This document shows positions 28,610-45,373 of a stretch of 64,000 nucleotides of DNA, in pieces. The notes beneath the pieces were generated by a model that did no database searches, had not been told where the DNA came from, and worked only from the letters and a program-made list of their open reading frames with translations. The stretch lies in IMG/VR virus record IMGVR_UViG_3300021168_000025, positions 5,621-69,620 of that record. One strand, given 5' to 3'. Every line of letters starts with the position of its first letter. Position 1 is the first letter of the stretch. The stretch comes from a virus. The position numbers and the translations under genes were made by a program.

Positions 28610-29164
28610 TTACATACGGCCACCGGAGTTTTGATACGCCTCAACCTCTTCCGGCGCAGCCCGGCGCAGCATGTCGAACTGCACGGTTACCGGAGAGGTA
28701 CCCGGCAGTTGGATGTTCGCGTGACCGCGTACCGCCTCGGCGGTTTCCTTGTCGGTACCAAAGATGCGGACCAGCTTGGCGGGCCGGCCGCGACCGGCGA
28801 CAACGATGTCACCGATCCGCAGGTTGTAGGGGTTGTCCGGCAGTGCCTGCCCGCCCGCTGTCGGTGTCTCTTGTGCAGCGGGTGCCGGCGGGTGTTTTAG
28901 AGTTACCGCGAACGATGACACCGCGTCGAGTGACAAAACCACCCGACCCTGCGCCACCGATGCGTCTTCCATTAACTGTGCCACCGTGCGGGCGTCATTG
29001 ACGACGGCGGCGTCTTCGCCCTCCTTCTCGCGCATCTCGGCCCACAGCCGGATCAGTGCCGGGGCGTGCCGGTCACGCTGGCGAAAGACAAAGACCTGTT
29101 CATCGTCACTGGCGCGTGACCAGCACGAATTCGGGTCTTCGAAGTTTTCGAGTTTTGTCGCCAT
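28610..29164 (-). CDS. Hypothetical protein
   Basis: AAGGAGTGACTCATG start; ASDDEQVFVFRQRDRHAP motif. Confidence 0.7.
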   Translation of the reverse strand: MATKLENFEDPNSCWSRASDDEQVFVFRQRDRHAPALIRLWAEMREKEGEDAAVVNDARTVAQLMEDASVAQGRVVLSLDAVSSFAVTLKHPPAPAAQETPTAGGQALPDNPYNLRIGDIVVAGRGRPAKLVRIFGTDKETAEAVRGHANIQLPGTSPVTVQFDMLRRAAPEEVEAYQNSGGRM

Positions 29165-29174
29165 GAGTCACTCC

Positions 29175-29495
29175 TTAGCAGGTAGTGGTACCGCCGCCAC
29201 CGGTATCGGTTGAACTATACGAAGTGTCAACGTGGTGGTGGCTACCGCCGATGTCACTGTGGTGTGTTGTGTGACTGTGGTGGTGCGACGAATTACCGGT
29301 GTCGGTATTCCGGTGGTGTGTTTCCGCTGCCGGCTTGGGAGTGTCCGTTATCAGCGATGTGACCAGTACGGTATTCATCGTCGTGTTCATTGTCGCCTCA
29401 TCGTCGTCGCGCTTCTTGCGAGCGGCTTCGGCTTCCTGGCGGGCGCGCGCCTCCTGTTGCTGGCGACGTGCCTCGCGGTGTCTTTTCCACAACAT
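29175..29495 (-). CDS. His/Thr-rich small protein
   Basis: AAGGAGTGACTCATG start; the RBS is the last array repeat. Confidence 0.6.
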   Translation of the reverse strand: MLWKRHREARRQQQEARARQEAEAARKKRDDDEATMNTTMNTVLVTSLITDTPKPAAETHHRNTDTGNSSHHHSHTTHHSDIGGSHHHVDTSYSSTDTGGGGTTTC

Positions 29496-29651
29496 GAGTC
29501 ACTCCTTTTCAATGCTTCTGTCCTGGAGAGGATTGGTTCACTCCCGAATGGTGTTTCTGTCATTCAACTGGGTTCACTCTTGAGATTTGTGTCTGTCTCT
29601 TCATTGGGTTCACTTTCCCCTGGTGTGTCTGTCATCCAACTGGGTTCACTT
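29496..29651 (-). ncRNA. TIGR-type dual-repeat array, block 3 (4 units)
   Basis: + strand GGTTCACT(C/T) at 29535, 29571, 29607, 29643 (36-nt period) alternating with GT(T/G)TCTGTC at 29553, 29589, 29625; 9-nt variable spacers. Confidence 0.9.
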
Positions 29652-30506
29652 CACATCGAGTGCGCGGTCGATCAGTAACTCAGTCTGTAAGGTGCCTAAG
29701 GCAAACTGGGTCAGCATCGCGCGATCCGCCGGATCGACAGCGGGGCTGATCGCGGTTTGCAGTGTTACCGCGACATACGCCAGCTTAGGGTAACGCTTGT
29801 GATGCTGCTCGACAAGCGGCAGCCCTACATGCTGGCAGAAGCGCAGATAATTCGCCTGGGTGGCGTTGCTCTCGACCGAACCCGGCAGCTTGAGCGCCAT
29901 CATCCAGTGGATGAAGTCAAACTCCTGCCCCCAGAACCCGACTTCCTTGGCCTTGATGTTGGTCTGTAACCGTTGGGTGATTTCGAGTGCATCGTGGTCA
30001 CCCAGGTACGGCCAGATGTCGGCGTAGAGGAAGTCCACCGGGAACCCCGGCTGGTAGCTGTGCGCGTCACCGATGATCAGTTCCACTTTGCGGAACCCGA
30101 CCCACTCGTTTGGGTCGATGGTACGCTTCCATAGGTTCACCACGCTCTTGTCCTTTTCGAGGACAATGACGCGGGTCACCTCAGGCTTGCGGATGATGTT
30201 GTACAAATAGAACCCCATACCCAGCCCGGCGACGACGACAACCCCCCTTGCCGCCGCGATGTGAGGCTGGTGTGACTCAAGTTCCATCGGTGTCAGTGAC
30301 ATCCACTTGAGCCAGTTGTTCTTGACCTTTTGCACAAACATCCAGCCGTTAGGCACAAAGTTGTGCGGTCGCCAGTAACCTATGACACGGTCACCGGACG
30401 GGTACGGGGCGCATTTCCACTTACCGATGTTGACCGATTTGTAACTGGGTACAAACGGGTCGGGCCACGGCAGCGGGTAGTGTGGGAAGAGAATTGTTTT
30501 TGTCAT
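29646..30506 (-). CDS. Class I SAM-dependent methyltransferase-like (spermidine-synthase-like) protein
   Basis: VVVAGLGMG, VIVLEKD, IIGDA, DFLYADIW. Confidence 0.75.
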   Translation of the reverse strand: MTKTILFPHYPLPWPDPFVPSYKSVNIGKWKCAPYPSGDRVIGYWRPHNFVPNGWMFVQKVKNNWLKWMSLTPMELESHQPHIAAARGVVVVAGLGMGFYLYNIIRKPEVTRVIVLEKDKSVVNLWKRTIDPNEWVGFRKVELIIGDAHSYQPGFPVDFLYADIWPYLGDHDALEITQRLQTNIKAKEVGFWGQEFDFIHWMMALKLPGSVESNATQANYLRFCQHVGLPLVEQHHKRYPKLAYVAVTLQTAISPAVDPADRAMLTQFALGTLQTELLIDRALDVK

Positions 30507-30525
30507 AGTCTGTCCCTCCTAGAAA

Positions 30526-30786
30526 GGTTCACTCTACTGGTCTGTGTCTGTCGATGGGATTGGTTCACTCGATTTCCGTGTTTCTATCCGCACGCGAGGC
30601 TCACTCAACTCTGTTGTTTCTGTCTTGACACTGGGTTCACTCATCGTGTGTGATTCTATTTTTCCCTGATGGGTTCACTCTGCCTTCACACTATCGACTC
30701 GTCATTTCTGAAGCGCACTCCTGGTGCGATGTTTCTGTGTCCGCAACTATGGTTCGTTCGGGGATCATGTGTCTAGCCGATCGCGT
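30526..30786 (-). ncRNA. TIGR-type dual-repeat array, block 2 (about 7 units, partly degenerate)
   Basis: GG(T/C)TCACTC at 30526, 30562, 30598, 30634, 30672 and GGTTCGTTC at 30751; second repeat at 30544, 30580, 30616, 30652, 30731, 30769. Confidence 0.88.
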
Positions 30787-30790
30787 GACT

Positions 30791-30826
30791 AAAAGAAAAC
30801 CCCGCCCGGATCAAACCGGGCGGGGC
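30791..30826 (-). terminator. Terminator-like hairpin
   Basis: CCCCGCCCGG-TTTGAT-CCGGGCGGGG-TTTTCTTTT. Confidence 0.75.
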
Positions 30827-30830
30827 AGTG

Positions 30831-31337
30831 TTACTTCCTCTTGTGTTGCCGTGACTCAGGATCACACACGGGTAGCGGACGTTGCCGCATCCCGTTAGGC
30901 ACATTCTTCTCCTGTTCCGCCACATCTCGCTCGGACCAGCCGAAGGGGATGCGGTGTTCGTCGTCGGCGGTTAGGATACACCAAATGTGGTACTTGTTGG
31001 TCTGATCCACTTTACGTGACTCAGCCGGGTAGATTTCCAGCCCCTCACACTCGGGACCGGCAAGCTGGTTCTTGATCGCCTGGAAGTCTCGCCAGTCACG
31101 AAAGATCACCCCACCGTCACGACGGCGGATGTTGATCTGCATACACGGACCAAGCTGCGGGTGATCAAAGGTGTGTGTCGCAATTTGGTACTTGTCGTTG
31201 ACCCAGATGGTTTCCCGCGCGATCTCGTCATTGAGAATCTTGCGGGCTTCCTCGAAGCTGACCCCCATTGTACGCACGGTCGCCTCGATCAGCTTGTCGT
31301 CGGCTTTGAACTTGTCTGCCTTGATTAGTGGTGTCAC
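30831..31337 (-). CDS. Conserved phage hypothetical protein
   Basis: DWRDFQAIKNQLAGPECEGLEIYPAESRKVDQTNKYHIW; TCTAGGAGGA RBS. Confidence 0.7.
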   Translation of the reverse strand: MTPLIKADKFKADDKLIEATVRTMGVSFEEARKILNDEIARETIWVNDKYQIATHTFDHPQLGPCMQINIRRRDGGVIFRDWRDFQAIKNQLAGPECEGLEIYPAESRKVDQTNKYHIWCILTADDEHRIPFGWSERDVAEQEKNVPNGMRQRPLPVCDPESRQHKRK

Positions 31338-31353
31338 TTTCTCCTCCTAGATG

Positions 31354-31543
31354 AAGGTACTCTAATCACATGATTCCATCGCTACGGATGGTTCACTCCG
31401 AACTTATGTTTCTGTCCTCACACGGGGTTCACTCTCTCTTGTTGTGTCTGTCTAGCTGATTGGTTCACTCTGTTCATGTGTGTCTGTCATACGGGATGGC
31501 TCGTTACCCTTGACGTGATTCGGTCGCGTGTTTTGACTCGTTC
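31354..31543 (-). ncRNA. TIGR-type dual-repeat array, block 1 (5 units)
   Basis: GGTTCACTC at 31390, 31426, 31462 with variants at 31354, 31498, 31535; second repeat at 31372, 31408, 31444, 31480, 31517. Confidence 0.9.
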
Positions 31544-31546
31544 CGT

Positions 31547-31578
31547 CAGAAACGCGCCACCGGTTTCCCGATGGCGCG
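31547..31578 (-). terminator. Hairpin between the Tas-like gene and array block 1
   Basis: GCGCGCCATCGG-GAAA-CCGGTGGCGCGT-TTCT. Confidence 0.6.
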
Positions 31579-31616
31579 CATGCTTTCATCTTGTGATTCA
31601 GTTCCTACCTCTGGCT

Positions 31617-32750
31617 CTAAGCGGCCTTCCTGCGCGGAATCGGTGACGGGATGTAGTGCGCGTGACCGAGTTGCGCGATGGCGAACGGTGCCGGTGCGTC
31701 TTTGCCGTGATGCCGCCAGTACCACTCCTCATGCAAGTGACTGAGGAATATCTTGACGGTGAAGCGCCGCGCCATGGCGTCGATATGTGCCGGCGGCAGG
31801 ATACCCGTGCTGTACGCTTTGTACGCATCGGTAGTCTTGCCTACGGTTTCCGCGCGCACCTTGGCAACCTCGCGGAACTCACCCATCTCGTTGCGCGTGA
31901 CCTCGCGCTCCTTGCGGCGGCGGTACAGTTGCCCATAGAAGCACTTCTCGTCGTTGCTGAACATCATGAATGAGTGACCAGCCTTCCAGCACAGGGTTTT
32001 GAACCCGGCGTTCCACGGGCGCTTCTCGCCCTTTGTCCACGGACGGTTACCGGAGAACGCGCGGAAGCTGCGGTCTACACCGATGATCCGGGGGATGCTG
32101 TCGAGGATCGCCGGGTGCGCCGCATCGCTCTCGATCACTACCTGGAAGAACGCGTGCGAGTCACCGTCAGGGTAAAGGTATGTGGCCTGATATGGCGGCT
32201 CCAGGTGTAGTGTCGGGATGACACCCTGCGGGATCGGGTTCCGGTAAGCGACACGGTAGACCGCACGCTTAAGCTCGGTATTGGTCACCGGACCCGCGAT
32301 ACCGGCGTAACTCCAAATGTGACCGACTGTAGGTGCCCGCTCGATCTTGATGTGCGCGAGCAGCCCGGCCGAGATCACCGGGCCGATACCGTACACCTCG
32401 CGCATCCAGCCGCCCATCATGTGGGATTGGGTGTAGACATCGAGCGCGGCCTTGATCTGTCCCTCCATGGTGGAGTTCTGGGTCTTTAGCCATGTGATGA
32501 TTTCGTGCGGCTCGTTGGACGCGTTGAGCGCCCGTTCCTGGCCGGCGGCGCGTTTGCGGTTTTCCTGCATGATGTAGTAAGCGTCAACTAGGAAACGCGC
32601 CTCGGTGTCACCGAGTGTCGCCGCGCCCTTACGCAGATCGCGGGTGAGCCGGGTGACCGGGTTTAGTTCCAGATCGAAGTCGGGTTCACCGCGCATGCAT
32701 TCACCGCGCGGCCACGGGCAGCGGTGCTCCAGCAGTGTCGTGTCAGACAT
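31617..32750 (-). CDS. Tas-like (TasA-type) Nop/IS110-related RNA-binding protein, no RuvC domain
   Basis: YYIMQENRKR coiled coil; YGIGPVISAGLLAHI...TVGHIWSYAG; KGEKRPWNAGFKTLCWK; AHIDAMARRFTVKIFLSHL; PFAIAQLGH; no DEDD domain; adjacent 36-nt arrays. Confidence 0.88.
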   Translation of the reverse strand: MSDTTLLEHRCPWPRGECMRGEPDFDLELNPVTRLTRDLRKGAATLGDTEARFLVDAYYIMQENRKRAAGQERALNASNEPHEIITWLKTQNSTMEGQIKAALDVYTQSHMMGGWMREVYGIGPVISAGLLAHIKIERAPTVGHIWSYAGIAGPVTNTELKRAVYRVAYRNPIPQGVIPTLHLEPPYQATYLYPDGDSHAFFQVVIESDAAHPAILDSIPRIIGVDRSFRAFSGNRPWTKGEKRPWNAGFKTLCWKAGHSFMMFSNDEKCFYGQLYRRRKEREVTRNEMGEFREVAKVRAETVGKTTDAYKAYSTGILPPAHIDAMARRFTVKIFLSHLHEEWYWRHHGKDAPAPFAIAQLGHAHYIPSPIPRRKAA

Positions 32751-32994
32751 GGGTTACTCCTTCCGTTAGACTTGGAACTGTGGGAACGGGACCACAGTAG
32801 GAACATATTTTCAGCGATAAGCCCGTGCTTTGGGCGTAAGTTAAGGCAGCGGTGTAGGTAGCGTGCTCTGTGTATTTCCCTTGGTTGTGTTGATGCACGC
32901 CGCCGCGTTTTCTGAGTTGTCCGCAACTGCTTTTGTGGATTGAGACGTGCGGATTGTGTGTGTTTTCGTAGGTCGTGAAAGGCATCGAAGGCAT
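32743..32994 (-). CDS. Small Cys/His protein coupled to the Tas-like gene
   Basis: H...C and CSYC residues; TCTAGGAGGA RBS; stop overlaps the Tas start. Confidence 0.6.
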   Translation of the reverse strand: MPSMPFTTYENTHNPHVSIHKSSCGQLRKRGGVHQHNQGKYTEHATYTAALTYAQSTGLSLKICSYCGPVPTVPSLTEGVTHV

Positions 32995-33046
32995 GGAAGC
33001 GTCTCCTCCTAGATAGGGGGTTTAAAGGAAGCCTTATCCTATTACC

Positions 33047-33082
33047 GAAAAAATCCCGGCAGGGCAAGCCCCACCGGGATCG
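33047..33082 (-). terminator. Terminator-like hairpin
   Basis: ATCCCGG...CCGGGAT followed by a T tract. Confidence 0.65.
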
Positions 33083-33435
33083 GGTTCTAATGCTGGAACT
33101 TTTGGATGAGCCGCTCGACCGGGGCAGTGGTCCGGTCGATCAGCGCGTGTCCCTGTGCCGGGTTGCGGCGTAGGGCTTCGAGTGAGTCAGCGGCGACCTT
33201 GCGTAACCATGACTGTAACGCTCGTAAGATCACCGCACGCTCTTCTGGTGTCAATTCCTCCAATCTATCCTCCCTTGTGAAGCTCAGTAGTGGTAGACGA
33301 CGGTGTGGTGACTGGCACACGATCCGATGATCAGTAACAGGATGAGTACCAGTAGACACCCACCGAAGTTACGGGACATGCCCATGATGACGTGGGCGAT
33401 AAGCACGCCCACGACCACCAGCAGGATGATGTGCA

Positions 33436-33912
33436 TCACGTACCTTTCTGCGGTTGGATGAGTCCCTCGATCATCTTCCCTCCGCTGTTCTCCAGCCGCG
33501 TCATGGGTTCCAGAGCGATCAGCCGGTTTCGCATACCGGGTGATAGATCGCGGACCATGTGCAACAGGATTGACGCGTTGCCGGTAGTGTTGCCCGCCGT
33601 GATGTGCACCACCTCGATACGGTCAGGGCTTTGGCTTGGTTGCACCTCGGGCGCGTCCTTGTCGAGATGGAGTGACCACCCTTCGCTGACAAAGACGAAG
33701 GCGCGACAGGTGATCTCCTGCGCCATGTTCTTGACCATCGCGAATTGCAGTGATTTTTGCAGATCGTTCTCCCACGCACACTGCATGATGTGGTGGGAAT
33801 CGTCGGCACCGATCAGGTGATACGTCGCTATCAGTTCCTTGTGCCGGCGTTCTAGTAGTACCTTGCGGGCGAACTCCTCGCCCATTTCGAGCAGTGTCTC
33901 AAGTTCGGTCAT
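33436..33912 (-). CDS. Hypothetical protein
   Basis: Cassette RBS; FVSEGW motif. Confidence 0.7.
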   Translation of the reverse strand: MTELETLLEMGEEFARKVLLERRHKELIATYHLIGADDSHHIMQCAWENDLQKSLQFAMVKNMAQEITCRAFVFVSEGWSLHLDKDAPEVQPSQSPDRIEVVHITAGNTTGNASILLHMVRDLSPGMRNRLIALEPMTRLENSGGKMIEGLIQPQKGT

Positions 33913-33987
33913 TGGTTCCTCCTAGATTTTGGTCACAAAAAACCCCCGGCACCGAAGCGCCGGGGGGATACTATCACGCCGCCGTGA

Positions 33988-34371
33988 TCACGCCGACTCT
34001 GCTTCTGTCGGCAATTGCTCGATGGCGTCAATGTGCTCGAAGTCGGGCGCGTCGGGTAGTTCGGGTGTCTCGACCTCATCGAGATCGAGTCCCTCCCATT
34101 CATCGATCCAGGCTTCGTAGGCCTGCCCGGCGTCGCCCTCCTGCCACTTGTCGGAACGCTCCTCCTGGTAGTCTCGCATATCTTGCACGATGCCGTCGCG
34201 CCATTCGGTGACAGCGGCAAGGGAAGCGTTGTACGCATCGATGGCGGTGGCGAGTTCGTTGTGTGCCAGTTCGAACTTCTCCCAGGCGTCATCGATCTCC
34301 CCCTTCTTGGTGGCGAGATCGGTAATATGGGCATTAAGTTCGCCCTGTTGTGTCTTATTGAACTTCTTCAC
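33988..34371 (-). CDS. Acidic coiled-coil protein
   Basis: Single-gene cassette; ERSDKWQEGDAG. Confidence 0.7.
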   Translation of the reverse strand: MKKFNKTQQGELNAHITDLATKKGEIDDAWEKFELAHNELATAIDAYNASLAAVTEWRDGIVQDMRDYQEERSDKWQEGDAGQAYEAWIDEWEGLDLDEVETPELPDAPDFEHIDAIEQLPTEAESA

Positions 34372-35179
34372 TGTGATCCTCCTAGAGGTTTGGTGGTTAG
34401 TGACGGGATGTCACACAAAAAGAAAACCCGGTCACCGAAGTGACCGGGTTACTTTCTACCACACCGCGATAGGTGGGGCTAGTGGGTTTGTGTCTCATCG
34501 CGGAACTTAGCCACAACCTTTTGTGCGGTCGCGCCGTAGCGCGTCAGCTTGCGTTCAGCCAATCTGCCTTTTGATGACAGGTAACGCACAAAGACATGCG
34601 GCCGATCACTCCACGCTTTGTGAATCCGGTATTCTCCGGTGCGTAGTTTGACAATTCCATCGCCGGGCCGATCTTCGGGCGGCGGTGGCCATACCATGAC
34701 GCTGGTCATTGGATATCTCCTAGCAGTTCTTCGGGTCGTTTGATCACCTCGGTGGTGATGTCAAACCGGGACAGCCGCACCCGGTTCATCGCCGGGTAGA
34801 CCTTCCAGGCTAGCGCGAGGTAGTGCCTCGCTTCCTCCTCGGTGTCAAAGGTACGCTCGCTGGCGGGGATATTGCTATCGGTTAGCCGCCACCTTGTTAG
34901 TGTCTTTTGTGTCATTTGTTCTCCTTGATGCAGCGTCCGAATTTGCAAGTGTTAGGGGTTGTGCAGTTACCGCAGTAGATCGCACGATTGAACTCCGTTG
35001 TTGCGGGGATTTCCTGAAGCCGCTTCCTAATGAGTTCCGCGTGTACTGTGCGTTCGTGCTGTTGCACACCCTGCGCCGTCTTAAAGACTTTGGCGCAGAA
35101 CCCGCACACAACGACACCGGCACCCGCGACACTCGGGGGTGCGGTGCCGCGCCGCGTGCGGCGGTGCCAGTCACCACGT

Positions 35180-35395
35180 TCAGACTTCATCGTCCTCATC
35201 CTCGGGGAATAATCGATCGAACTCCTCCTCGGTGGCACCGCTGAGCAGGAACTCCCGCTGTCCCGGTGTCAGGTTTGGGAACACATCCTGGATCAATGCG
35301 CCGGTATTCTGCCAGCGGTCGATCTGCGCTTGAGTCACCGGAAGCTCCAACTCGGTTTCCACCCCGGTGAAGATGGATTTGCGTTTGACTAGCAT
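35180..35395 (-). CDS. Hypothetical protein
   Basis: LIQDVFPNLTPGQREFLLSG; cassette RBS. Confidence 0.7.
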   Translation of the reverse strand: MLVKRKSIFTGVETELELPVTQAQIDRWQNTGALIQDVFPNLTPGQREFLLSGATEEEFDRLFPEDEDDEV

Positions 35396-35466
35396 GTTAC
35401 TCCTCCTAGGTTAGGTTACACAAAAGAAAACCCCCGGCACGAATGCCGGGGGTCAAGTGTAACATC

Positions 35467-35805
35467 CTACGCGTACGCTCCGGTAGCGGTGTCGTCGTGC
35501 GGCTTGATTGATCGACGCACGATGACGCGTTGCACCTTACCGCGTGACTGCGGTCCAACCAGATAGTATCCGTTGTCGGTCAGTTCCTTTTTTATGGCAG
35601 CTTCCTGATCGACTGTTGCCCCGTTCTTTTTGGCCCAAGCACAAGCTGCACCGCGTGTGGCGCGGATGCCGTCCTTGTCGGTACGATCTTTTGGCATCGG
35701 GAAGTATTCCGTCTGCCCGTTGTCGTTAAAACGGACAACGAGAAAGCCGCCTTCGATCCGCACACTCATTCGTCTGGTGGATTTATGATGAAAGTAGGCA
35801 CCCAT
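35467..35805 (-). CDS. Hypothetical protein
   Basis: Bounded by two junction hairpins. Confidence 0.6.
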   Translation of the reverse strand: MGAYFHHKSTRRMSVRIEGGFLVVRFNDNGQTEYFPMPKDRTDKDGIRATRGAACAWAKKNGATVDQEAAIKKELTDNGYYLVGPQSRGKVQRVIVRRSIKPHDDTATGAYA

Positions 35806-36087
35806 AACACACAGTCCTTTTTGTAGTGGTTAGTGACACCAAAAGAAACCCCCGGCACCTGGATGCCGGGGGTTTAGGTCAGCGCCCCGCGAGTGCGCGA
35901 GCCTGAGTCAACCGCGCGAGCGCGAGATGGCGGTGTGCCATTTCGAGATGCGAGATCGCGATCAGGTATTGCTGCGTCGCGACCGGATCGGCACCGTCAG
36001 TCTCGGTACCAAACAGGAAGTTTTGGTACAGATCATGCACGCGCTTCTCGTAGTCTTGGAGCGTGCTGTGTGTGAACTCCACTAAAA

Positions 36088-36882
36088 TCACCTCCTTCCG
36101 ATACGGTTGGGGTTGATGTTACCGCCGACTTGCTGGTCTAGGCCGATCCGGTCACCGGCTTTCCAGCCGGCCACCGCGCCACCCTGGTGCTCGATGTTGG
36201 CGAGGCTGGTAGCCTTGGGATCGGGCAGGATGCCCTGCTGCCGCAGGTAGTCCCGTGCCGCGTCCTGCGCCTGCTCGTAGAGCGAGCGAACCGCCGGCAG
36301 GTTGGTGCCGGGGATGCCGCTTTCCTGCGCCTCTAGAAGCTTCTGGTGCAGGCGGTAGCGCACCCTAGCGGTGCAGGCGTTCATAAACGACACCCGGAAC
36401 GCCGGCCGCTCTTTGGTCGGCCATTTCCGCACCTCCTCGCGGCATAGGGTCTGCATCGCGCGAGCGATGTACTGACCCATCGCCTTGGCCACCGTCACGT
36501 CAACCGGCTTGCCGATAAAGTTGTGTCGCAGGTAGGCTGTCCGGTGGTTACCGGCGATCAGCGGGAACAGCCCGTCGTTCAGCCCGTGTTTTTCGATCCA
36601 GTCGGCCGGGAACGTTTCGTAGTAGTAGCCACAGAGGTACAGTTGTGCCACCCCGTTCAACAGTGACTTGATCCATTCGGACGAATCCGTCAGGAAGTCA
36701 GTGTCACGGATGATGGTGTCGCCGGCCTTGGCCACGTCCGACATCGACAGGTGGTACTTGACCAGAAGTTCCTGTACCTTACCGGAACAGGCGTCGATCT
36801 CGGCCTCGGTGCGGCCGGCGGTTTCGAGCAGAGCCTTGATCCGGCGGATCGCCGACTCACGCTCCTTTCTTTCGTCACTCAT
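36088..36882 (-). CDS. DUF2786-like protein
   Basis: RRIKALL...TEAEIDAC...QELLVKYHLS N-terminal helical hairpin; GWKAGDRIGL. Confidence 0.7.
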   Translation of the reverse strand: MSDERKERESAIRRIKALLETAGRTEAEIDACSGKVQELLVKYHLSMSDVAKAGDTIIRDTDFLTDSSEWIKSLLNGVAQLYLCGYYYETFPADWIEKHGLNDGLFPLIAGNHRTAYLRHNFIGKPVDVTVAKAMGQYIARAMQTLCREEVRKWPTKERPAFRVSFMNACTARVRYRLHQKLLEAQESGIPGTNLPAVRSLYEQAQDAARDYLRQQGILPDPKATSLANIEHQGGAVAGWKAGDRIGLDQQVGGNINPNRIGRR

Positions 36883-37042
36883 TGTCCACCTCCTAGAAGC
36901 TGGGCGATAATGACACCTATTGCTACGGGGAACTGGGCGAGGATGATTAGCCCCACCGCTATTTTGACGTATTTCATCGTGTCCTCCTAGATGAGAGCTA
37001 CACCAAAAGAAAACCCCGCCGTGTTACCGGCGGGGTTTTGGG

Positions 37043-37390
37043 TTAGGGTCTAGTGACCGGTTGCCAATCGTCGTTGGGGTCGCGCTTCTTGGGCGGCAGC
37101 AAGGCATCGAGCCATGGGCGCGGTTCCATCTTGCGCTTTGCCGGTACAGCCTGGGTGATGGTGGCGACTACCTGCGGTGTTGAACCGTTAGTGACGGCGG
37201 TGATCACCATTGGCGGCTGGTTCTTGTGCTTGTTTCCACAAGCCATGAAGAAGCAGATAATCCAGCCGATGATCGTCCACCCGAGTAACAGGTTCAGGAA
37301 CAGTATCTGTCCCCATCGGGCGTGACCGCGACACGCGGCGATGACGGTAGGCGTGAAGTACAAGATCAGGAAAACGGCAGCTAGTAACAT
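37043..37390 (-). CDS. Superinfection immunity (Imm) membrane protein
   Basis: LYFTPTVIAACRGH...ILFLNLLLGWTIIGWII, the T4 Imm-type signature. Confidence 0.88.
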   Translation of the reverse strand: MLLAAVFLILYFTPTVIAACRGHARWGQILFLNLLLGWTIIGWIICFFMACGNKHKNQPPMVITAVTNGSTPQVVATITQAVPAKRKMEPRPWLDALLPPKKRDPNDDWQPVTRP

Positions 37391-37466
37391 TGGAAGTTCC
37401 TCCTAGATGCGAGTTACACAAAAGAAAACCCCCGGCACCGAATGCCGGGGGTTGTTTAGTGACGGG

Positions 37467-38471
37467 TTAGGCCTTGGCGAACTCGACCGCCATTTCGAGC
37501 GCGCGGCGCTTCATCTGCGCACCGTTGCCGTGCCACACCGAGAACAGCCGGTTGTCGTCACGACCCATGACGTGGTCAACACAATAGGTGACCGCATTGA
37601 ACGCGTTCCACCAAGTGTCACGGAACAGTTCCTGTCCCGGCGCGGTGAGCAGCGACTCACGCAACCGCTTCATGTTGCGGTTGTCCTCGAAGTCGATCAT
37701 CTCGGCTTCGGTCACCTCCTCGTCGTGCTCCAGCCGCAGCACGCCATGGAAGAAGTCGGTGACATCATCCTCGCGCGCCCGGACGCCCGACAGCAGCTTG
37801 GCGGTATGTGAGTACGCCTTGATGCCTTCGTGCGCCAAGCCCAGCGTGCGCTCAGCCTCGGCCTTGACTTCGTCATCAAACGGCCGGTTGTGGAGGTGGC
37901 GGAAGGCACCGACCTTGTTCTTGCCGTCCAGGGTGCCGCCCAGAGAACTGGTGAGGGTGTTCTCGCAGACGACCCGCACTGCCGTCATGCAGGCGTTGAG
38001 CGCATAGCCGAGAACGTGCGGCTGCGACAGCAGCACGTAGCACTCGGTCTTGTCGCCCCTGCCCAGCGTGAACGCGCCGTCCTTGATCTTGGCCAGCACC
38101 CAGACAAAGCGACCGTTCCTGAGCGCGCCGGCCGTTTCCATCTCCATGTCACCGGCTTCCACGAACCGCTTGAAGAAATCAAACACGTCGTGGTTCTGCA
38201 CCGGAATGTAACCGCGACCAACGGTGTCGAGCACCGTATAGTCTTTGTTACGGACGAGCGCGAACTCGTCTGGTACGATCCGCATCCGCTGCTTCTCGCC
38301 CGGTGCCACCGGCATCGGGAAGTAGAGCGGGTGCTTGGACACCGTCCAGTCAAGCCCGGCCGCGACAAGCATGTCATCGACCGACATATCGTTATCGACC
38401 GGAACACCTTCACCGTGCCAGGGCAAGCCACCGGCCTTGCGATACGCAATCGATTCGACGTTAGCAGGCAT
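37467..38471 (-). CDS. DUF932/DUF945 phage-plasmid protein
   Basis: PWHGEG, AGLDWTV, METAGAL, VRVVCENTL, TWWNAFNAVT. Confidence 0.88.
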   Translation of the reverse strand: MPANVESIAYRKAGGLPWHGEGVPVDNDMSVDDMLVAAGLDWTVSKHPLYFPMPVAPGEKQRMRIVPDEFALVRNKDYTVLDTVGRGYIPVQNHDVFDFFKRFVEAGDMEMETAGALRNGRFVWVLAKIKDGAFTLGRGDKTECYVLLSQPHVLGYALNACMTAVRVVCENTLTSSLGGTLDGKNKVGAFRHLHNRPFDDEVKAEAERTLGLAHEGIKAYSHTAKLLSGVRAREDDVTDFFHGVLRLEHDEEVTEAEMIDFEDNRNMKRLRESLLTAPGQELFRDTWWNAFNAVTYCVDHVMGRDDNRLFSVWHGNGAQMKRRALEMAVEFAKA

Positions 38472-39364
38472 GTTACTCTCCTCCTAGAGGGGATCGGGTA
38501 GTGACGGGATTGTCACCCACCCACACAAACAGAAAACCCCACCGGGTTGGAACCGGTGGGGTTTGGTTACATCCATGTCACATCCTTCTGGCGACACCCG
38601 TGTCGCCGCGCGTGATCTCGGGCACCATACCCCAGATCGTGTCATAGACCTTGCTGGTGACAAGGTGCCACGGGGCATCGACCATGTCGGTACCCATCCA
38701 GCGGCGTGGCCCGCCGTCCTGGTAACAAGCCCAGAACTTGATCTCGACACCTTCCGGTGTCTGGGTCAGGTCGGCTTGGTAGTGACCCAGTTTGCTCGCG
38801 ATGGTTAGTGTCTTCATCACCGCACCCGTTCCAGTTTGTCGGTGTCCAGGTTCAGCTTGGCGGGTTTCCACCGCGCCTCGCCGACCAACGTCAAAATCAT
38901 GCACTGACGCTCACCGTGTTCGTCCACTTCGTAGAACATCTGGACGTTGTCTCTCGTCGGCCCGACTTCGGCCCAAACACTGACGGGCTTGCTAGCACCG
39001 TCTTCCTTGTAGGTGAGCCGGCAGTATTCTGGGCCATGTTCCAGATACCGTTTCATGTTGTCCTCCAGTGACGGTAACAGATACCGTCACCCTAACAAAA
39101 AACCCTGCCGGTGCGATCCGGCAGGGTTAGTGTCATCGTCCGGCTTTCTCGTTGTCCTGGCCCGCTGCCCAAGCAGCGTAGGCGAGGCTGTTGCGCAGGT
39201 AGCGGCTGGGCTGACCATCGTAGCCGTTCCAATACGCACTGCGGTGCCCTGCGCCTCGGAGAGGCTTACCGTTCCACCAGAACTCGCCGGTCTTGTCCAG
39301 CCCGGTCACCCGGCAGGTTTCGTACATTTCCTGCATCTTGGGGTCTTTGAACCGCCGCTTCATG

Positions 39365-39871
39365 TCACATCTCCATCTTTTTGGAACATTCTGGACCGAT
39401 CCCAGCTTCGACACTGGATGGGACCGTAAGTGTCCTACCGCAGCGGCCACAATTGCCCGAATGCCGGACAATCATGTCGTTCGGGATGTGACCGCGCTCG
39501 ACATGGGTCCAGAAGTACACAAAACCCTTCACGCACGGGGCATCGGCCTTGAACTTGGCCTTTGCCGTCTGCCGGAACAGGCAGCCGTTGAGCCGGGTTT
39601 CGATCAGCCCGATGTACGAATAGTCACTATCGTTATCGGGACCGCTCAGGACACCGACAAACCACCGGCCTGCCGGTGACCCGTCGTCGTTCTTCGCGCG
39701 GTTGATCTTGTACGTGAAGTGCTTGCCGGTGCGCCGTGACTCTAACGTGATCGTCGCGTGACCGGCCATCGTGTATGCGGAAGCCGCCGCCGCATCGGTA
39801 AAACCGTTGACGTTGACCAAGCCCTCGGCCGAATCGTTATCGACGGCGAGCCTGAGATCGTTGCGTGCCAT
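39365..39871 (-). CDS. DUF6011-like zinc-ribbon protein
   Basis: CGRCGRTLTVPSSVEAGIGPEC. Confidence 0.75.
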   Translation of the reverse strand: MARNDLRLAVDNDSAEGLVNVNGFTDAAAASAYTMAGHATITLESRRTGKHFTYKINRAKNDDGSPAGRWFVGVLSGPDNDSDYSYIGLIETRLNGCLFRQTAKAKFKADAPCVKGFVYFWTHVERGHIPNDMIVRHSGNCGRCGRTLTVPSSVEAGIGPECSKKMEM

Positions 39872-39947
39872 TTGATCCTCCTAGATTGAGGGGTTACACA
39901 TATAGAAAAACCCCCGGCACCGCAATGCCGGGGGTTCCTTGGTACCT

Positions 39948-40154
39948 CTAGAGGATAACGAAGTCTGCAAGCTTGTTGTAACGGATGCGGACGTTCTGCC
40001 CCGCCCAGTCACTTTTGGACGTGTACTTACCGTCCCACCGGTTACCGATGTCGGCGATGCGGAAGTCCTTACCCGCATCCCAGTCCTTTTGCACCGCCTC
40101 CGGTGTCTGGTAGTCGCGCCCATAGGCGGGAACCAAATTGACTGCGTAGATCAT
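39948..40154 (-). CDS. Hypothetical protein
   Basis: PAYGRDY...DWDAGKDF; AGGAG RBS. Confidence 0.65.
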   Translation of the reverse strand: MIYAVNLVPAYGRDYQTPEAVQKDWDAGKDFRIADIGNRWDGKYTSKSDWAGQNVRIRYNKLADFVIL

Positions 40155-40511
40155 GAGTATCTCCTACTCGTTCAGGATTGTGAGCCGAAGCTCGGGATGT
40201 GCTTTCGACGCGGACTTGAAGCGCATCAGCTTCCAGTCACCGCTCGGCGTGTTCACCACTTGGTCAACTTCGAACACCACCTCGCCGCCGGTCTTTTCGT
40301 TCCGCACGGTGATGAGCGTGTTGAAATTGTGACCGTGACGCTGTGACAGGTTGGTAAACAACCCGACAAAGGTCTTGGTCCTGGTGTCGTAGGTGAACAG
40401 GCAGGCGGGGATCACTTCGTTATGAAGTGCCTTTCGACCTGACATTGTGTGTCCTCCTAGATCAGACACCAAAGGAAAACCCCCGGCACCTGAATGCCGG
40501 GGGTTTGGTGT

Positions 40512-40919
40512 CTAATCGGCAAAGTCCCACGGCAGCTTGTTGTATGCCGGTAGATTGTGGGGGCTTTGACCCTTTTTGAGTTTGTACTTGACCGCGATCT
40601 GTTTCGCGAGATCGTCCTCGACCTGTTCCAGCAAGTTGAACAGCGCCGTTTCGGGAACAGTACCTTCGCTGCACTGGTAGGTCAGGCAAGACACCGCCTT
40701 GAACCGGGCGAGCACCGGGTCGGCATCATCATGGTTGCGGTGGGCGTAGGTGAACGCCAGCGGTTTGTCACCGTAGCGTTGCCGTAACGCTTCCATGTTG
40801 AGCTTGATCAGTTCCGCACCCAACGCATCGGGCAGCATCGGCGGGTTCTCGTTGTTGAACGCGAGCACCGCGCTGACCGCGCGATCAATCGTACCGTCGT
40901 TGACCATAAACGCACTCAT
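40512..40919 (-). CDS. Hypothetical protein
   Basis: Single-gene cassette; CLTYQCSEG. Confidence 0.7.
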   Translation of the reverse strand: MSAFMVNDGTIDRAVSAVLAFNNENPPMLPDALGAELIKLNMEALRQRYGDKPLAFTYAHRNHDDADPVLARFKAVSCLTYQCSEGTVPETALFNLLEQVEDDLAKQIAVKYKLKKGQSPHNLPAYNKLPWDFAD

Positions 40920-40983
40920 TTGCTCCTCCTAGATGAGAGTTACACTAAAAGAAAACCCCCGGCATCTCTGCCGGGGGTTAGTG

Positions 40984-41217
40984 TCACCTGTCCGCTACAA
41001 AGTTGAAGTAGAAGCGGGGGCTGTGGGTGAATTCGAGGACACCCTTCACACCGTCAACCTTGCGGGTGACGATGACAAACGGGGCCATGAAACCGTGGAC
41101 GGTGAAGTCACGGCGCAGCGCCTCGGTGTCCCACCGCAGTTCAGCCGCTTCGAGATCGCGCTCGGGCTGGTTGTTGGCGAGCATCGCGCGGCGCAGGTTT
41201 TCAGTCTCGTCTGTCAC
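40984..41217 (-). CDS. Hypothetical protein
   Basis: Single-gene cassette; FMAPFV...HSPRFYFNF. Confidence 0.7.
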   Translation of the reverse strand: MTDETENLRRAMLANNQPERDLEAAELRWDTEALRRDFTVHGFMAPFVIVTRKVDGVKGVLEFTHSPRFYFNFVADR

Positions 41218-41290
41218 TAGTTCCTCCTAGAGGTTGGTTACATAAAAGAAAACCCCGCCGGTTTGACCCGGCGGGGTTATGGTGACACTC

Positions 41291-41971
41291 CTAGGCTTTC
41301 TCCTTCTTTGCCTTAGGTGGCGGCACTAACCGCTTCCCGGCCGCGTTGAGGAACCCGGCGGCGTCGAGCGTGGTGACGATATCGTCAAACGCCACCCGCA
41401 CGTACTTGGCGGTGGCCATCGCCAGGACCGCGTCCTTGGCCAAGGCTTCCTGCCCGATGTGCGGTCGCTTGACAATCACCCGCGCACCCCGCAGGAACGA
41501 TGACTCGCTCTTGGAGTAGCGCGGCGGCTCGCGGAACTTTTTCACCCGCTCACCCGTGTTGTCGAGTTCGACATCATCAAACCCAAACTCGATGTCATCC
41601 TCATCATCGATGGGGCTGTCATCGATCAGCACGCGCACGACCGGTGGGGCGGTGACCACCTGTACCGGTGCCGCAGCCGAAGCTGCCTTCTTGGCGCGCG
41701 GGGGTGGTGTCACCTTCACCGGTTCGGTGCTAAAGCCCGACCGGCGGGTCATCTCGGCGTCGTGTTCCTTGCGGACAGCGACCGCTTCCTGGACCGCGTT
41801 GTCCAGCTTGCGGTGAGTGTAGAACCCACGCTTGCTGGGGTCATTGGTACCTTGGTAAAAGCTAGCGATGATCGGATCGTCAACCCGGTAGTTGCCGAGA
41901 TTGTCACGGCTGACTTCCAGGTGGAACTTCTTGACCACCGTTTGCAGTGCCAGGGACATTTGGATTGCCAT
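41291..41971 (-). CDS. Hypothetical protein
   Basis: 226 aa, bounded by junction repeats. Confidence 0.7.
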   Translation of the reverse strand: MAIQMSLALQTVVKKFHLEVSRDNLGNYRVDDPIIASFYQGTNDPSKRGFYTHRKLDNAVQEAVAVRKEHDAEMTRRSGFSTEPVKVTPPPRAKKAASAAAPVQVVTAPPVVRVLIDDSPIDDEDDIEFGFDDVELDNTGERVKKFREPPRYSKSESSFLRGARVIVKRPHIGQEALAKDAVLAMATAKYVRVAFDDIVTTLDAAGFLNAAGKRLVPPPKAKKEKA

Positions 41972-42052
41972 AACGTTGGTTCCCTAGTGGTCGGATACGG
42001 AGTGTACCCATAGAAAAACCCCGGTCACCATTCAAGGTGACCGGGGTTTAGG

Positions 42053-42226
42053 TTACACTTTTCCGGCGTTCCGCGCCGCCTCGTCGCGCTTGCGGGCGAT
42101 GTAACTGTCAATCTCCCGTGTGAGTTGTTGCAGCCGGTCTAACTCCTTGCAGGCGTCCGGCCAGTTTTGCTGCATCACAGTGAGTGTCAGCCGCTCACTG
42201 ATGATTCGCAGATCGTTGAGGTTCAT
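42053..42226 (-). CDS. Small helical protein (not in ORF track)
   Basis: MNLNDLRIISERL...; stop just before a junction hairpin. Confidence 0.55.
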   Translation of the reverse strand: MNLNDLRIISERLTLTVMQQNWPDACKELDRLQQLTREIDSYIARKRDEAARNAGKV

Positions 42227-42228
42227 CG

Positions 42229-42561
42229 TTACTCCTTCTTCTGGTCAGGGGTCTTGCGCGCGGTGACCCGAACAGAGGCTTTCCGCGTGCTGTCCTTGGT
42301 GTGGGCGGCGAACCATTCGTCACCCATCTCGGTCTTGACAAAGTCGGTGTCAAGCGACGTGACGGTGCATTCCGGCACGATGGTGGCGGTGTACAGGTTA
42401 CCGTCGATGTACTTCCGGTCACCGGCCCGCGTCAGGAGTTCCGCGACAAACGCCTTCTTTTTCTTTTCGAAGTCGGCGACGATTGCGGAGATACGACCGA
42501 TCTCGTCAACGAGTTCGGCAGTACCCATCACGGGGGTTTTGGCTTTCGGCTTAGTCTTCAT
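42229..42561 (-). CDS. Hypothetical protein
   Basis: Cassette RBS. Confidence 0.7.
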   Translation of the reverse strand: MKTKPKAKTPVMGTAELVDEIGRISAIVADFEKKKKAFVAELLTRAGDRKYIDGNLYTATIVPECTVTSLDTDFVKTEMGDEWFAAHTKDSTRKASVRVTARKTPDQKKE

Positions 42562-42919
42562 GTGATCCTCCTAGAGGTTACACCATAAGAAAACCCCGGT
42601 CACCGAAGTGACCGGGTTTGTGTTAGGCGAAGCCCCATTCGGCCAAGCCCTCGACCAGCGAGCCGACATAGCGCGGCTCGACAACCAAGGCACCACCGAA
42701 CCACTGCGCTTCCGCATCGACGTGGTCTTCGAGGAAGATGCGGCACTCTTCAGTGATCGGGGTGATCAGGACGATTGAGCCGTGATCGGCAATGGTGAAC
42801 TCAGGCATTGTGACCATTCTCCCTAGTGAGAGGTTCTTTGGAACCCGGTGACCAACCACTGGTCACCGACTTCACACCCATAGAAAAACCCCCGGTCACG
42901 AATGACCGGGGGTTAGGTG

Positions 42920-43174
42920 TTAGCGATGCTCTTCGCTCAGTTCCTCGGCGACCCGAAGCAGGTAAGCGGCGATGTCCTTCGCCTCCTGCTTGGTCACTGT
43001 CGCCGTGCTGATCCGCTTTTGTGTGCCCTTGCGGGTGCGGACCTGGACGGTGATGGTGAACGGGCTGTCGCGGTAGATGCGCAACGCTTGGTCAAACTCA
43101 TCCGACACCGGGTGCTTGGGTGAGATCACCCGGCTGTCGGCGTAGGGTTTCATCAACAGGATTTGGTCAGTCAT
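42920..43174 (-). CDS. Hypothetical protein
   Basis: GGAGG RBS; stop just before a junction hairpin. Confidence 0.6.
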   Translation of the reverse strand: MTDQILLMKPYADSRVISPKHPVSDEFDQALRIYRDSPFTITVQVRTRKGTQKRISTATVTKQEAKDIAAYLLRVAEELSEEHR

Positions 43175-43975
43175 TGTTACCTCCGTACGAAAGCCACACC
43201 ATTGTGGGCTAGGGTGATTGCAGATTGGACCTGAGCCTCGCTCGGCAGCACGACCGGGTAGAACCGGCCGGCCGGCGTGGCGGCGATCAGGTAGGTGAGG
43301 TTTTCATCGGTACCGCCCAGCTTGGCCACCGTCTTGTGGAGCGCCTTCTCGGCGTTCTCGTAAGTGGCGTAGGTGCGCGGCATGTCGTCACTAAATGCCT
43401 TGCGTAACATGGTAGCTCCTCTGTGGCCCCTAGTGGTCACACCATAAGAAAAACCCCGCCGTGTTACCGGCGGGGTTTTGGTCACTTCAGCGCGTTATCC
43501 AGTTTCATACCGTAGATGTGGACGCGGGCTTTTTGTGCCGCCTCGGTCTTGGTGCGCCAGCTACCGTTCTCGAAGCCGGTGTTGATGATGGTGAAAGACC
43601 ATGCCGCCGCGTGGCGATCCCACGGGATCGTCACCTTCTTCACATCGTAAGTGACGCGGCAGAAGCTGTCCCGGTAGTGACCGGCGCTAACCCGTAACAT
43701 GTGCTCCCTCCTTTTCTTCCGGCAGAAATGGCTTCAGGCTATTGGCGATATAGCCGACCGCGATATTGGCCCGCATCACCTGTTTGCGGCCCTCAATCTG
43801 CTGCTCGCGGGTTAGGCCGTCTTCGTCCTCGACGCGGAAAAAATCGGCCCAGGCGAGCGCCTCGGCGTCGATTGCTAGCTCGATCTGTTGTGCGGTGTAC
43901 TCGGTCATCTGAAGTCTCCGAAGTGTGTCACACTTAAACAAAAACCCCCGGTCACGAATGACCAGGGGTTTAGGG

Positions 43976-44152
43976 TTAGTCACGGTAGTGACGTTCGGCC
44001 CAAGCGTCGTTGCGGCGCTCGGTTTCCCGACCGTCATCCTCGGCCATGCCGGTGTCCGTGTCGAACGGCTCGACATCGGTACCGCCGCAATGCGGGCAAG
44101 TATAAGCCGGTGACGGCTTGTTGCACTCGTAGCAGAACAGATCGTTACGCAT
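43976..44152 (-). CDS. Small zinc-ribbon protein (not in ORF track)
   Basis: MRNDLFCYECNKPSPAYTCPHCGG; single-gene cassette. Confidence 0.6.
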   Translation of the reverse strand: MRNDLFCYECNKPSPAYTCPHCGGTDVEPFDTDTGMAEDDGRETERRNDAWAERHYRD

Positions 44153-44428
44153 TTGGTTAGCTCCTATCTGTGACCCTAGTTGTCACACCATAAGAAAAAC
44201 CCCCGGCAAGTGAATGCCGGGGGTTTGTGTTACAGTGGCAGTTCCGGCGCGATGCGGTCGCGCTCGGCGTAGATTTCCGCCGCCGCCTTCAGGCCGGCGC
44301 GCTTCGCTTGGGTGTAGGACGCGAAGAAACCCTTGCGGGTGACAATCTCTTCGTCCTCGTAGATGACGAATTCGTGCTTGCCGTGCAGGCGGTAGTCGCG
44401 ACCGACCACCATCGAGAGTGCCATGGTG

Positions 44429-44644: not shown

Positions 44645-44685
44645 GGTAGTTCCTTTAGTGACATCCTAGTGTCACACCCTACAAC

Positions 44686-45165: not shown

Positions 45166-45170
45166 ACCCT

Positions 45171-45210
45171 ATAGATGGGGATTAAAGTTACTTTTTCAAG
45201 GTTTTTCTTT
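45171..45210 (-). promoter_or_regulatory. Sigma70-like promoter for the leader and cassette array
   Basis: A-rich UP element, TTGAAA (45199-45194), 16-17 nt spacer, CATCTAT. Confidence 0.6.
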
Positions 45211-45369: not shown

Positions 45370-45373
45370 TCTT

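Follow-up and report, generated by a model that had tools for sequence, protein, structure and literature searches.

A dual-repeat TIGR array interleaved with protein-coding genes downstream of a TasA-like gene in a soil phage

We analyzed a stretch of viral DNA of 64,000 nt (the window; positions 5,621 to 69,620 of IMG/VR record IMGVR_UViG_3300021168_000025, which make up most of a 69,620-bp contig with 56.8% G+C) and find that it harbors a dual-repeat TIGR-TasA system in which the array of guide RNAs (tigRNAs) is spread over three consecutive cassette junctions, with a small, distant fourth patch. The contig belongs to a tailed soil phage of ≈70 kb, with tail sheath, tape measure, and tail fiber genes on the plus strand and helicase genes on the minus strand according to the gene annotation of the window. 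Between window positions 32,750 and 28,610, five co-directional open reading frames (ORFs) lie on the minus strand with gaps filled by 36-nt repeats, the three consecutive intergenic gaps downstream of tas being occupied by dual-repeat TIGR units. The order along this strand is tas, hairpin, block 1, gene A, hairpin, block 2, gene B, block 3, gene C, and gene D. An earlier note, made from the letters of this DNA, had proposed a guide array split into three blocks between protein-coding genes and accompanied by a Tas-like protein. All the elements that it described are present on the minus strand where it had placed them, and the identity of array and protein is backed by a match to the NCBIfam model TIGR_Tas_endo and by profile matches to solved Tas structures (see below).

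Each repeat unit is built from an edge repeat GAGTGAACC, a 9-nt variable segment, a loop repeat GACAGA(A/C)AC, and a second 9-nt variable segment, 36 nt in all. Two distinct 9-nt repeats that alternate with 9-nt spacers in tandem agree with the published build of dual-repeat TIGR arrays (8–12-nt repeats, ≈9-nt spacers). The exact edge GAGTGAACC is present in nine copies in the 64 kb, all on the minus strand and all inside the three blocks, where 0.46 ± 0.64 copies are expected and none of 100 shuffled sequences reaches nine; the composite GTGAACC-N9-GANAGANAC (edge, 9 nt, and loop, with at most one mismatch) yields eight matches against 0.02 expected. Nine of the units, which number ≈15 overall, are exactly 36 nt long. 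The edge (GA-GTGA-ACC) and the loop (GA-CAGA-AAC or -CAC) have GA....A.C in common, in letters unlike the UG/CCA of TaTasR. In the TIGRFinder model, the box D/box C nucleotides shared by edge and loop are arranged as 2 nt, a 4-nt gap, and 3 nt, and the box motifs of TIGR repeats are reported to be able to diverge (PMC12045711). A position weight matrix derived from the nine canonical units, with the best score of 20 shuffles as the threshold (16.9), gives only two matches beyond the blocks that exceed all shuffles, at 45331 (score of 21.3) and 45405 (18.4). These mark the fourth patch (45290–45405, minus strand), which comprises two to three degenerate TIGR-like units directly 3′ of a helicase gene; the patch shares the strand of tas and lies ≈12.6 kb upstream of it. 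An Rfam scan of the whole window at gathering thresholds returned no matches.

Block 1 (31354–31542, minus strand) consists of five units in perfect 36-nt register, with edges that start at 31542, 31506, 31470, 31434, and 31398, plus, at 31362, a 3′-truncated edge with the sequence GAGTACC; units one and two carry edge variants (AACGAGTCA and TAACGAGCC). Block 2 (30526–30789, minus strand) opens with two or three degenerate units from ≈30789, continues with a 38-nt unit at 30680 and three canonical 36-nt units at 30642, 30606, and 30570, and closes with a full edge at 30534–30526. Block 3 (29496–29651, minus strand) contains three 36-nt units (29651, 29615, and 29579), a 39-nt unit with a 12-nt spacer A (29543), and the terminal edge variant GAGTGACTC at 29504–29496. 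A 12-bp GC-rich hairpin followed by UUUCU (31553–31580, minus strand; −25.0 kcal/mol, with shuffles averaging −13.6, SD 3.0) is found directly 3′ of the tas stop codon (31617) and directly 5′ of block 1. An 11-bp GC-rich hairpin followed by UUUUCUUUU (30799–30826, minus strand; −26.7 kcal/mol against −11.8, SD 2.8, in shuffles) stands after the gene-A stop codon and directly 5′ of block 2 and is the top terminator-like site of the scan. At their other ends, block 1 leads 5 nt past its last edge into CTAGGAGG (31350–31343) and on to the gene-A GTG (31337), and block 2 leads 3 nt past its last edge into CTAGGAGG (30522–30515) and on to the gene-B ATG (30506). Both blocks end in GAGT(G)A(A)CC-TT..TCTAGGAGG, and this junction is duplicated on either side of gene A plus block 2. 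The gene-B stop codon (TGA, 29648–29646) is part of the edge that opens block 3, AAG-TGA-ACC (AAGTGAACC), and GAGTGACTC at the far end of block 3 overlaps an AAGGAG ribosome-binding site (RBS) and abuts the gene-C ATG. Finally, AAGGAGTGACTCATG is an exact 15-nt direct repeat (29493–29507 and 29162–29176), the second copy of which starts gene D. The anatomy read in the earlier note, in which blocks 1 and 2 follow terminator-like hairpins and run into the RBS of the next gene, a gene ends inside an edge repeat, and the last repeat variant supplies an RBS–ATG whose sequence recurs at the next gene start, is borne out at each of these sites. No terminator follows any of the blocks, the distance from block to RBS is only 3–12 nt, and gene B ends in block 3; each block would therefore be the 5′ leader or 3′ trailer of a neighboring mRNA whichever promoter is used.

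The tas gene (31617–32750, minus strand) encodes a 377-residue protein (P0001) with a Nop-type Tas core. It matches NCBIfam NF052498.1, TIGR_Tas_endo (“TIGR-Tas system RNA-guided endonuclease”), with 191.6 bits against a cutoff of 100 (E = 1.6e-56, residues 51–343), and a profile of 21 relatives matches TaTasR (9mty; 2.5e-16), SpTasH (1e-12), and IS621 (8.5e-5). A Pfam search of the protein gave no family at E ≤ 0.01, and no HNH or RuvC domain was seen; the core begins at residue 51. This Tas is therefore TasA-like, with the proviso that an insertion of ≈80 residues could still hide a cryptic domain. This insertion (residues ≈155–236; window 32046–32291, minus strand) lies in the Nop core, where SpTasH and most relatives have a few residues, and is also present in the close clade and in some relatives that are 48–55% identical. 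His363 and His365 are invariant in all 21 aligned relatives. The PHROG label of the protein, “transposase,” reflects the kinship of Tas with IS110. The Tas family is large, with 4916 proteins at E ≤ 0.001 among 6949 candidates.

In an effort to place this layout among related systems, we examined 160 fetched Tas loci (80 from IMG/VR and 80 from metagenomes), in which the window genes were placed by tblastn and the junctions were read by eye. The window and eight of these loci form a clade with 99/99 support, in which Tas is 72–85% identical to that of the window, and the interleaved layout recurs in five further metagenomic contigs with Tas 80–85% identical. Locus L084 has the order tas, hairpin, block, gene A (overlapped at its 3′ end by a unit), hairpin, block, gene B, block, and gene D; L086 runs from tas through hairpin, block, gene A, hairpin, and block to gene B at the contig end, and L082 and L092 from tas through hairpin and block to gene A at the contig end. 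In L001 and L002, tas is followed by a hairpin, a single block of ≈eight units, gene B, a block, and gene D, without gene A. Homologs of gene A are found at the same position in L081, L082, L084, L086, and L092 and, by tblastn, not in L001 or L002, which places gene A in five of six lineages with data. Homologs of gene B, 71–77% identical, are found at the same place in L001, L002, L081, L084, and L086, and the array is split around gene B in all five, that is, in every relative that reaches so far; this embedding argues for an old split that has been maintained rather than one of recent, accidental origin. Gene D has homologs in L001 (68% identical), L002, L081, and L084. A hairpin of differing stem sequence follows tas in all six folded cases (window, L081, L084, L086, L092, and L001), and another follows gene A in all four (window, L081, L084, and L086); folded singly, these 10 hairpins range from −21.6 to −31.4 kcal/mol, with shuffle means of −8.7 to −16.1. 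In relatives, TIGR units extend into the 3′ coding ends of genes A and B (L084 1980–2060, L001 8366–8384, and L084 3151–3160), and the gene-B stop codon of L084 lies inside a loop repeat (GAC-TGA-CACA).

The earlier note had suggested that cargo genes were inserted into the array and had proposed to look in related phages for contiguous arrays without the intervening genes. The comparison supports this suggestion as gain or loss of cassettes: gene A is absent from L001 and L002, and gene C is flanked by the 15-nt repeat; the direction of change is not resolved by the tas tree. L001 and L002 carry an uninterrupted block between tas and gene B, and gene B itself is embedded wherever a contig reaches it. 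The single upstream block of L001 also ends in GAGT(G)A(A)CC-TT..TCTAGGAGG. Gene C is either a local addition or has been widely lost: tblastn gave no match to it across all 160 loci, and L001 has one copy of AAGGAGTGACTCATG (with one letter different, GACGC for GACTC) with gene D directly after it. Gene C is present in a DNA contig of soil run X3 that spans the 3′ end of gene B, block 3, and gene C. A contig of the same run has the 267 nt upstream of tas (32761–33029, with an 83-residue ORF) replaced by 21 nt, a case of cassette presence and absence between samples.

Sequence nearly identical to the window (0.99–1.00 of sampled words) is found in only two soil metagenome runs among those listed, possibly the phage's own source; the share of sampled words is ≈0.3 in two further soil runs and ≤0.11 in the remaining listed runs. 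In a phage collection, the 4.2-kb region gave one irrelevant 131-nt match by blastn, and the Tas protein gave none by tblastn. Contigs from other soil runs carry exact 36-nt skips in block 2 (30564 to 30601) and block 1 (31425 to 31462), and a contig of another sample has ≈32 extra nt at 31499–31503 that, judged by eye rather than by alignment, resemble a unit of L081. In an 891-nt contig of run X3, six of the eight listed substitutions fall within 47 nt of block 3. No contig of these runs bridged the flanks of an absent gene A, B, or C, and in runs X3–X5 and X13 contigs cover the region only in part. On these comparisons the arrays appear to be live, not fossil, with whole units and spacers that change faster than the flanking genes. 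Some units are conserved in the clade: the first unit of block 1 (spacers AAACACGC and CGTCAAGGG), the last unit before gene A (ATCCGTAGC and ATGTGATTA), and the unit that immediately precedes gene D. L001, L002, and L084 also keep the final unit of block 3, with its 12-nt spacer A and spacer B ATTGAAAAG. Conservation of these units points to one of two roles, as leader elements or as guides whose targets are conserved.

Split arrays are also found at greater distance. With a stricter array detector, which failed on most loci of the close clade, arrays could be delimited in 95 of the 160 loci, counted without duplicates, and in 16 of these 95, some of them near-duplicates (e.g., L064 and L065), two blocks of at least two units each are parted by at least 200 nt without tas. 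Clear cases are L010 (5 and 18 units on either side of 658 nt), L043 (24 and 16 units, 574 nt), L064 (7 and 8 units, 1826 nt), and L089 (3 and 12 units, 2454 nt). Two genes, for a Rep3-like initiator and an HNH endonuclease, occupy the gap of L089 (4811–7264; Tas 47% identical). L136 looks like L089. Among 10 gap ORFs in distant loci, two have Pfam matches, three have PHROG matches, and seven have no family and are putative ORFs only. With 16 of 95 loci split, interleaving is recurrent rather than the curiosity of one phage.

The combination of hairpin and CTAGGAGG, in contrast to what had been supposed, is not special to the array and is instead generic to cassette junctions across this phage. 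From 32,900 to 46,500 there are 31 terminator-like sites against 13.9 ± 3.8 in shuffles, 15 of which are strong minus-strand hairpins (9–13 bp); GTGT[AG]AC follows 7 of these 15 hairpin/T-run sites at +7 to +11, and CTAGGAGG (one mismatch allowed) follows 10 of them, usually at ≈+20. On the minus strand, GTGT[AG]AC occurs at 17 sites in the window, 11 of them in the ≈10-kb cassette region, and some 15 junctions between 33,900 and 44,700 on this strand conform to the order hairpin, T-run, GTGT[A/G]AC, ≈6 nt, CTAGGAGG, and ATG. GTGT[A/G]AC is one base off the terminal edge of the array, GAGTGAC, and the TIGR blocks occupy the slot between the T-run and a GTGT[A/G]AC-like motif. The generic motif itself, as GTGTGAC, stands in the position of the last truncated “edge” ahead of gene A in L084, L082, and L081. 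This likeness of the terminal truncated edges to a cassette motif would fit repeats that are protein-binding or structural DNA or RNA elements of the cassette region and only resemble TIGR units. We consider such an origin very improbable, given the strict 36-nt period, the two alternating 9-nt repeats with GA..GAA.C in common, the two 9-nt variable segments, the position directly downstream and on the same strand of a protein that scores nearly twice the NCBIfam Tas cutoff, and the same-build arrays, each with its own repeat sequences, at related Tas loci.

The explanation that we favor, and hold to be slightly better than an even bet, is that small cassettes were gained or lost at shared junctions and so cut one TIGR array, that the blocks are transcribed as leaders and trailers, that excision of units separates the cistrons, and that TasA is guided to DNA. 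Recombination would occur at the repeated junction of hairpin, T-run, GTGT[A/G]AC-like motif, and CTAGGAGG. TasA dimers would bind the 36-nt units, which would be freed by cleavage in the edge repeats; the cleaving enzyme may be Tas itself or, given a Phe at the inferred catalytic Tyr (see below), a host RNase that acts on Tas-bound RNA. Cleavage of dual-repeat arrays is reported to occur at a constant position of the edge repeat and to require Tas (PMC12045711). Unit excision would sever the cistrons and leave upstream mRNAs that end in a protective hairpin; genes A and B would keep leaders of ≈25 nt that start a few nt before the Shine–Dalgarno sequence, and the cut in the last block would fall in the Shine–Dalgarno/ATG region and remove the Shine–Dalgarno sequence of gene C, or of gene D in relatives. 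With the freed tigRNAs as guides, TasA, which lacks a nuclease, would bind DNA targets and probably act there as a repressor; TasA-type proteins are described as repressing transcription at guide-matched sites (10.64898/2026.09.09.750476). The conserved layout is probably tied to how the neighboring mRNAs are made, and guide maturation may plausibly be coupled to cleavage of these mRNAs, with the cutting of mRNA by maturation geometrically forced only if the blocks are co-transcribed with their neighbors and processed. A 246-nt contig from an RNA library is identical to the window at 30292–30537, an interval that takes in the final edge of block 2, the RBS, and the 5′ end of gene B; this is a weak hint of co-transcription of block 2 and gene B, as such contigs prove neither transcription nor RNA ends.

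Several observations weigh against this explanation. In the motif P-x-P-[Y]-x6-H-x-H, the position seven residues ahead of the invariant His holds Tyr in 98 of 116 relatives, Phe in 17, and Trp in one; in the window Tas it is Phe356, and Phe is also found in L081, L082, L084, L086, and L092 (five of six close relatives checked), with Tyr in L001. TaTasR has Trp at the matching position. Judged from the 7-residue spacing and not from direct alignment, this position would correspond to Y289 of the Y289/H296 dyad of SpTasH. SpTasH, a dual-repeat protein, is reported to process its own RNA in the edge repeat by means of this dyad (PMC13421893; 10.64898/2026.09.09.750476), whereas TaTasR is reported not to catalyze pre-tigRNA cleavage itself (10.64898/2026.08.11.744272). 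The Phe therefore suggests that self-processing may be lost in the clade and that a host RNase may be needed. In addition, blocks 1 and 2 are degenerate toward their 5′ ends, and L081 keeps the gene order with block 2 shrunk to about one degenerate unit, which argues that the array is not required at every junction. The 14 units searched against the phage's own 69.6-kb genome (both tandem arrangements, both strands, gaps of 0–3 nt) found no target, with one hit at three mismatches against 0.29 per control pairing, and 1.27 Mb of fetched loci (gaps of 0–1 nt, at most two mismatches) gave zero target hits, with a control mean of 0.225. Within the clade the tas tree is a polytomy with five of nine inner branches below 80% support, so that gain and loss of cassettes cannot be told apart. 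Finally, both hairpins resemble strong intrinsic terminators (the folding energies given above, with a U-run), and 15 more such hairpins lie upstream; efficient termination at these sites would put tas and the blocks on separate transcripts, with each block in need of its own promoter. Either the hairpins are read through, or each cassette has an unrecognized promoter.

A first alternative is a passive mosaic, in which the hairpins are efficient terminators combined with cassette promoters and the blocks are remnants of an array that, if expressed, are leaders from their own promoters with no selected effect on neighbors. We regard this as possible, though rather doubtful. The hairpin/T-run/RBS junction is generic to ≈15 cassettes, block 2 is nearly lost in L081, and cassette presence or absence varies between samples, all of which fit such a mosaic. 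So does the description of PeSLs, the stem-loop elements of T4-like phages, as terminator/promoter composites that mediate indels in hyperplastic regions (PMC4122927). As for promoters, the minus strand from 28.4 to 33.4 kb has a single weak σ70-like site (30775–30746, 9 of 12 positions), which falls in the degenerate 5′ part of block 2 and in that respect suits the mosaic; against it, one such site compares with 2.0 ± 1.4 in shuffles, and the scan of the 13.6 kb upstream (32.9–46.5 kb, same strand) gave none, with the reservation that the host promoter type may differ. A block with its own promoter would still be the leader of the next mRNA, and its processing would set that 5′ end. Moreover, the interleaved order is kept across lineages with Tas 80–85% identical despite turnover of spacers, which speaks against inert remnants.

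The genes between the blocks raise a further alternative, in which gene A, gene B, or both partner TasA in an accessory-gene operon (compare the TasParB proposal). Gene A (30831–31337, minus strand) encodes a 168-residue DUF7694 protein (PF24746, E = 1.3e-8, 35 bits against a cutoff of 27; phrog_7839). Gene B (29646–30506, minus strand) encodes 286 residues of a class I Rossmann-type protein, spermidine-synthase-like or methyltransferase-like. It had been labeled a methyltransferase, a name that finds a basis in phrog_15480 (“methyltransferase,” 1.3e-10); a spermidine-synthase-like class I fold is the better description, through weak matches to spermidine synthase (E = 0.024 in the PDB; E = 0.005 in NCBIfam, far below the cutoff) and a value of 0.97 for “Spermidine synthase family” among Atlas clusters. 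In its boldest form, this alternative has the gene-B product as an effector recruited by TasA–tigRNA as fibrillarin is recruited by Nop5. In its favor, gene B is array-embedded in the window and in all relatives that reach it, and the Nop domain of Tas has the clade-specific insertion of ≈80 residues. Set against this, gene B is found in only 5 of the 160 loci, all of one close clade in which linkage may be synteny; distant Tas proteins that bear the insertion (L003, L087, and L088; 42–47% identical) have no gene-B match in their fetched flanks; gene A is dispensable in L001 and L002; and the family assignment of gene B is weak. A prediction of a complex between TasA and the gene-B product gave no answer (0.00 against a mark of 0.32) and speaks neither for nor against partnership. 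On this evidence we consider an accessory operon unlikely.

Two further ORFs complete the region. Gene C (29175–29495, minus strand; 106 residues) is a putative ORF with His/Thr-rich low complexity, flanked by the AAGGAGTGACTCATG direct repeat; its predicted protein is rich in His, Thr, and Gly, has a basic, coiled-coil-like N terminus, and has no family match. Gene D (28610–29164, minus strand; 184 residues) also has no family match and directly follows the last block in relatives.

TIGR-Tas itself is already known, and what is new here is the interleaved order that is kept in related phages. The system shares with the dual-repeat TIGR-TasA described by Faure et al. (2025, PMC12045711) a nuclease-free Nop-domain Tas, a same-strand array that adjoins tas, a 3′-truncated edge, and a phage origin. 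As described there, TIGR arrays lie upstream and/or downstream of tas and typically have a 5′-truncated edge first and a 3′-truncated edge with a rho-independent terminator last; in the window, by contrast, hairpins precede the blocks, no terminator comes after the array, and the blocks run into the RBSs of unrelated genes. The window Tas further differs in its ≈80-residue insertion and in the Phe at the inferred processing Tyr. The same study reports arrays between tasParB and tasA and a stem-loop TasA locus with three subarrays, parted by an “intergenic region” of ≈450 nt and all expressed and processed (PMC12045711), such that multi-block loci and a block between two operon genes are already published. 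The window differs from these loci in its intervening genes (DUF7694, spermidine-synthase-like, and a His-rich ORF), which are not ParB-like, and in having three successive junctions filled, with a stop codon and RBSs that overlap repeats. Intragenic tigRNAs in tas (Xu et al. 2026, 10.64898/2026.09.09.750476) are alike in that guide units share a transcript region with coding sequence, and Xu et al. raise a possible coupling of tigRNA maturation to translation; theirs are described inside tas and mostly in stem-loop systems, whereas those of the window lie between, or at the 3′ ends of, other genes. A search of the main TIGR-Tas papers and of the available literature turned up no mention of arrays interrupted by unrelated genes or of repeats that supply stop codons or RBSs; the supplementary figures and tables may show such loci.

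For repeats that supply stop codons, the nearest parallel appears to be the archaeal box C/D sRNAs. These belong to a related Nop-binding guide class and are located at mRNA ends (Lui et al. 2018, PMC6009581). For 23 of them, the 5′ end is reported to provide the stop codon of the upstream gene, like the edge repeat for gene B, and co-transcribed box C/D sRNAs are described as having to be excised from mRNAs, with a possible effect on mRNA stability (PMC6009581). The archaeal sRNAs are single and guide RNA methylation, whereas the window has tandem units of the DNA-targeting type in a phage.

For the cassette junctions, the PeSL seems to be the closest described analogue. PeSLs of T4-like phages are described as terminator/promoter composites (Comeau et al. 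2014, PMC4122927); they are also the subject of Arbiol et al. (2010, PMC2839356). Like the junctions of the window, they place a repeated stem-loop between small cassettes, with indels among close relatives, and they act as points of recombination, as is proposed for the window. The window differs in belonging to another phage group, in having a guide array among the shuffled items, and in that a σ70-like scan found no promoter in its junctions (subject to the reservation on host promoter type made above).

A broader conjecture joins the generic junctions to the array. GUGU(A/G)AC could be a solitary half edge repeat at which the Tas-dependent machinery of tigRNA excision cuts every junction of the ≈17-kb early cluster and so converts one long read-through RNA into hairpin-capped monocistronic mRNAs, with the TIGR units at the three junctions and in the 45.3-kb patch as expansions of a processing site. 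We think this quite improbable; if true, the guide array would double as an RNA-processing system of the operon.

If the blocks are only shuffled remnants, the locus amounts to a modest note on phage mosaicism. The resumption of blocks past non-tas sequence in 16 of 95 loci is a warning for array finders that halt at the first gene, and the Phe-for-Tyr clade is useful to separate self-processing from processing by host RNases. The locus indicates that dual-repeat arrays can sit within an operon of unrelated genes, with repeats that give a stop codon and abut or form RBSs, and that this layout persists while spacers and unit numbers change. It thereby offers a natural case in which to examine a link between mRNA fate and guide maturation, of the kind proposed for the intragenic tigRNAs of tas.

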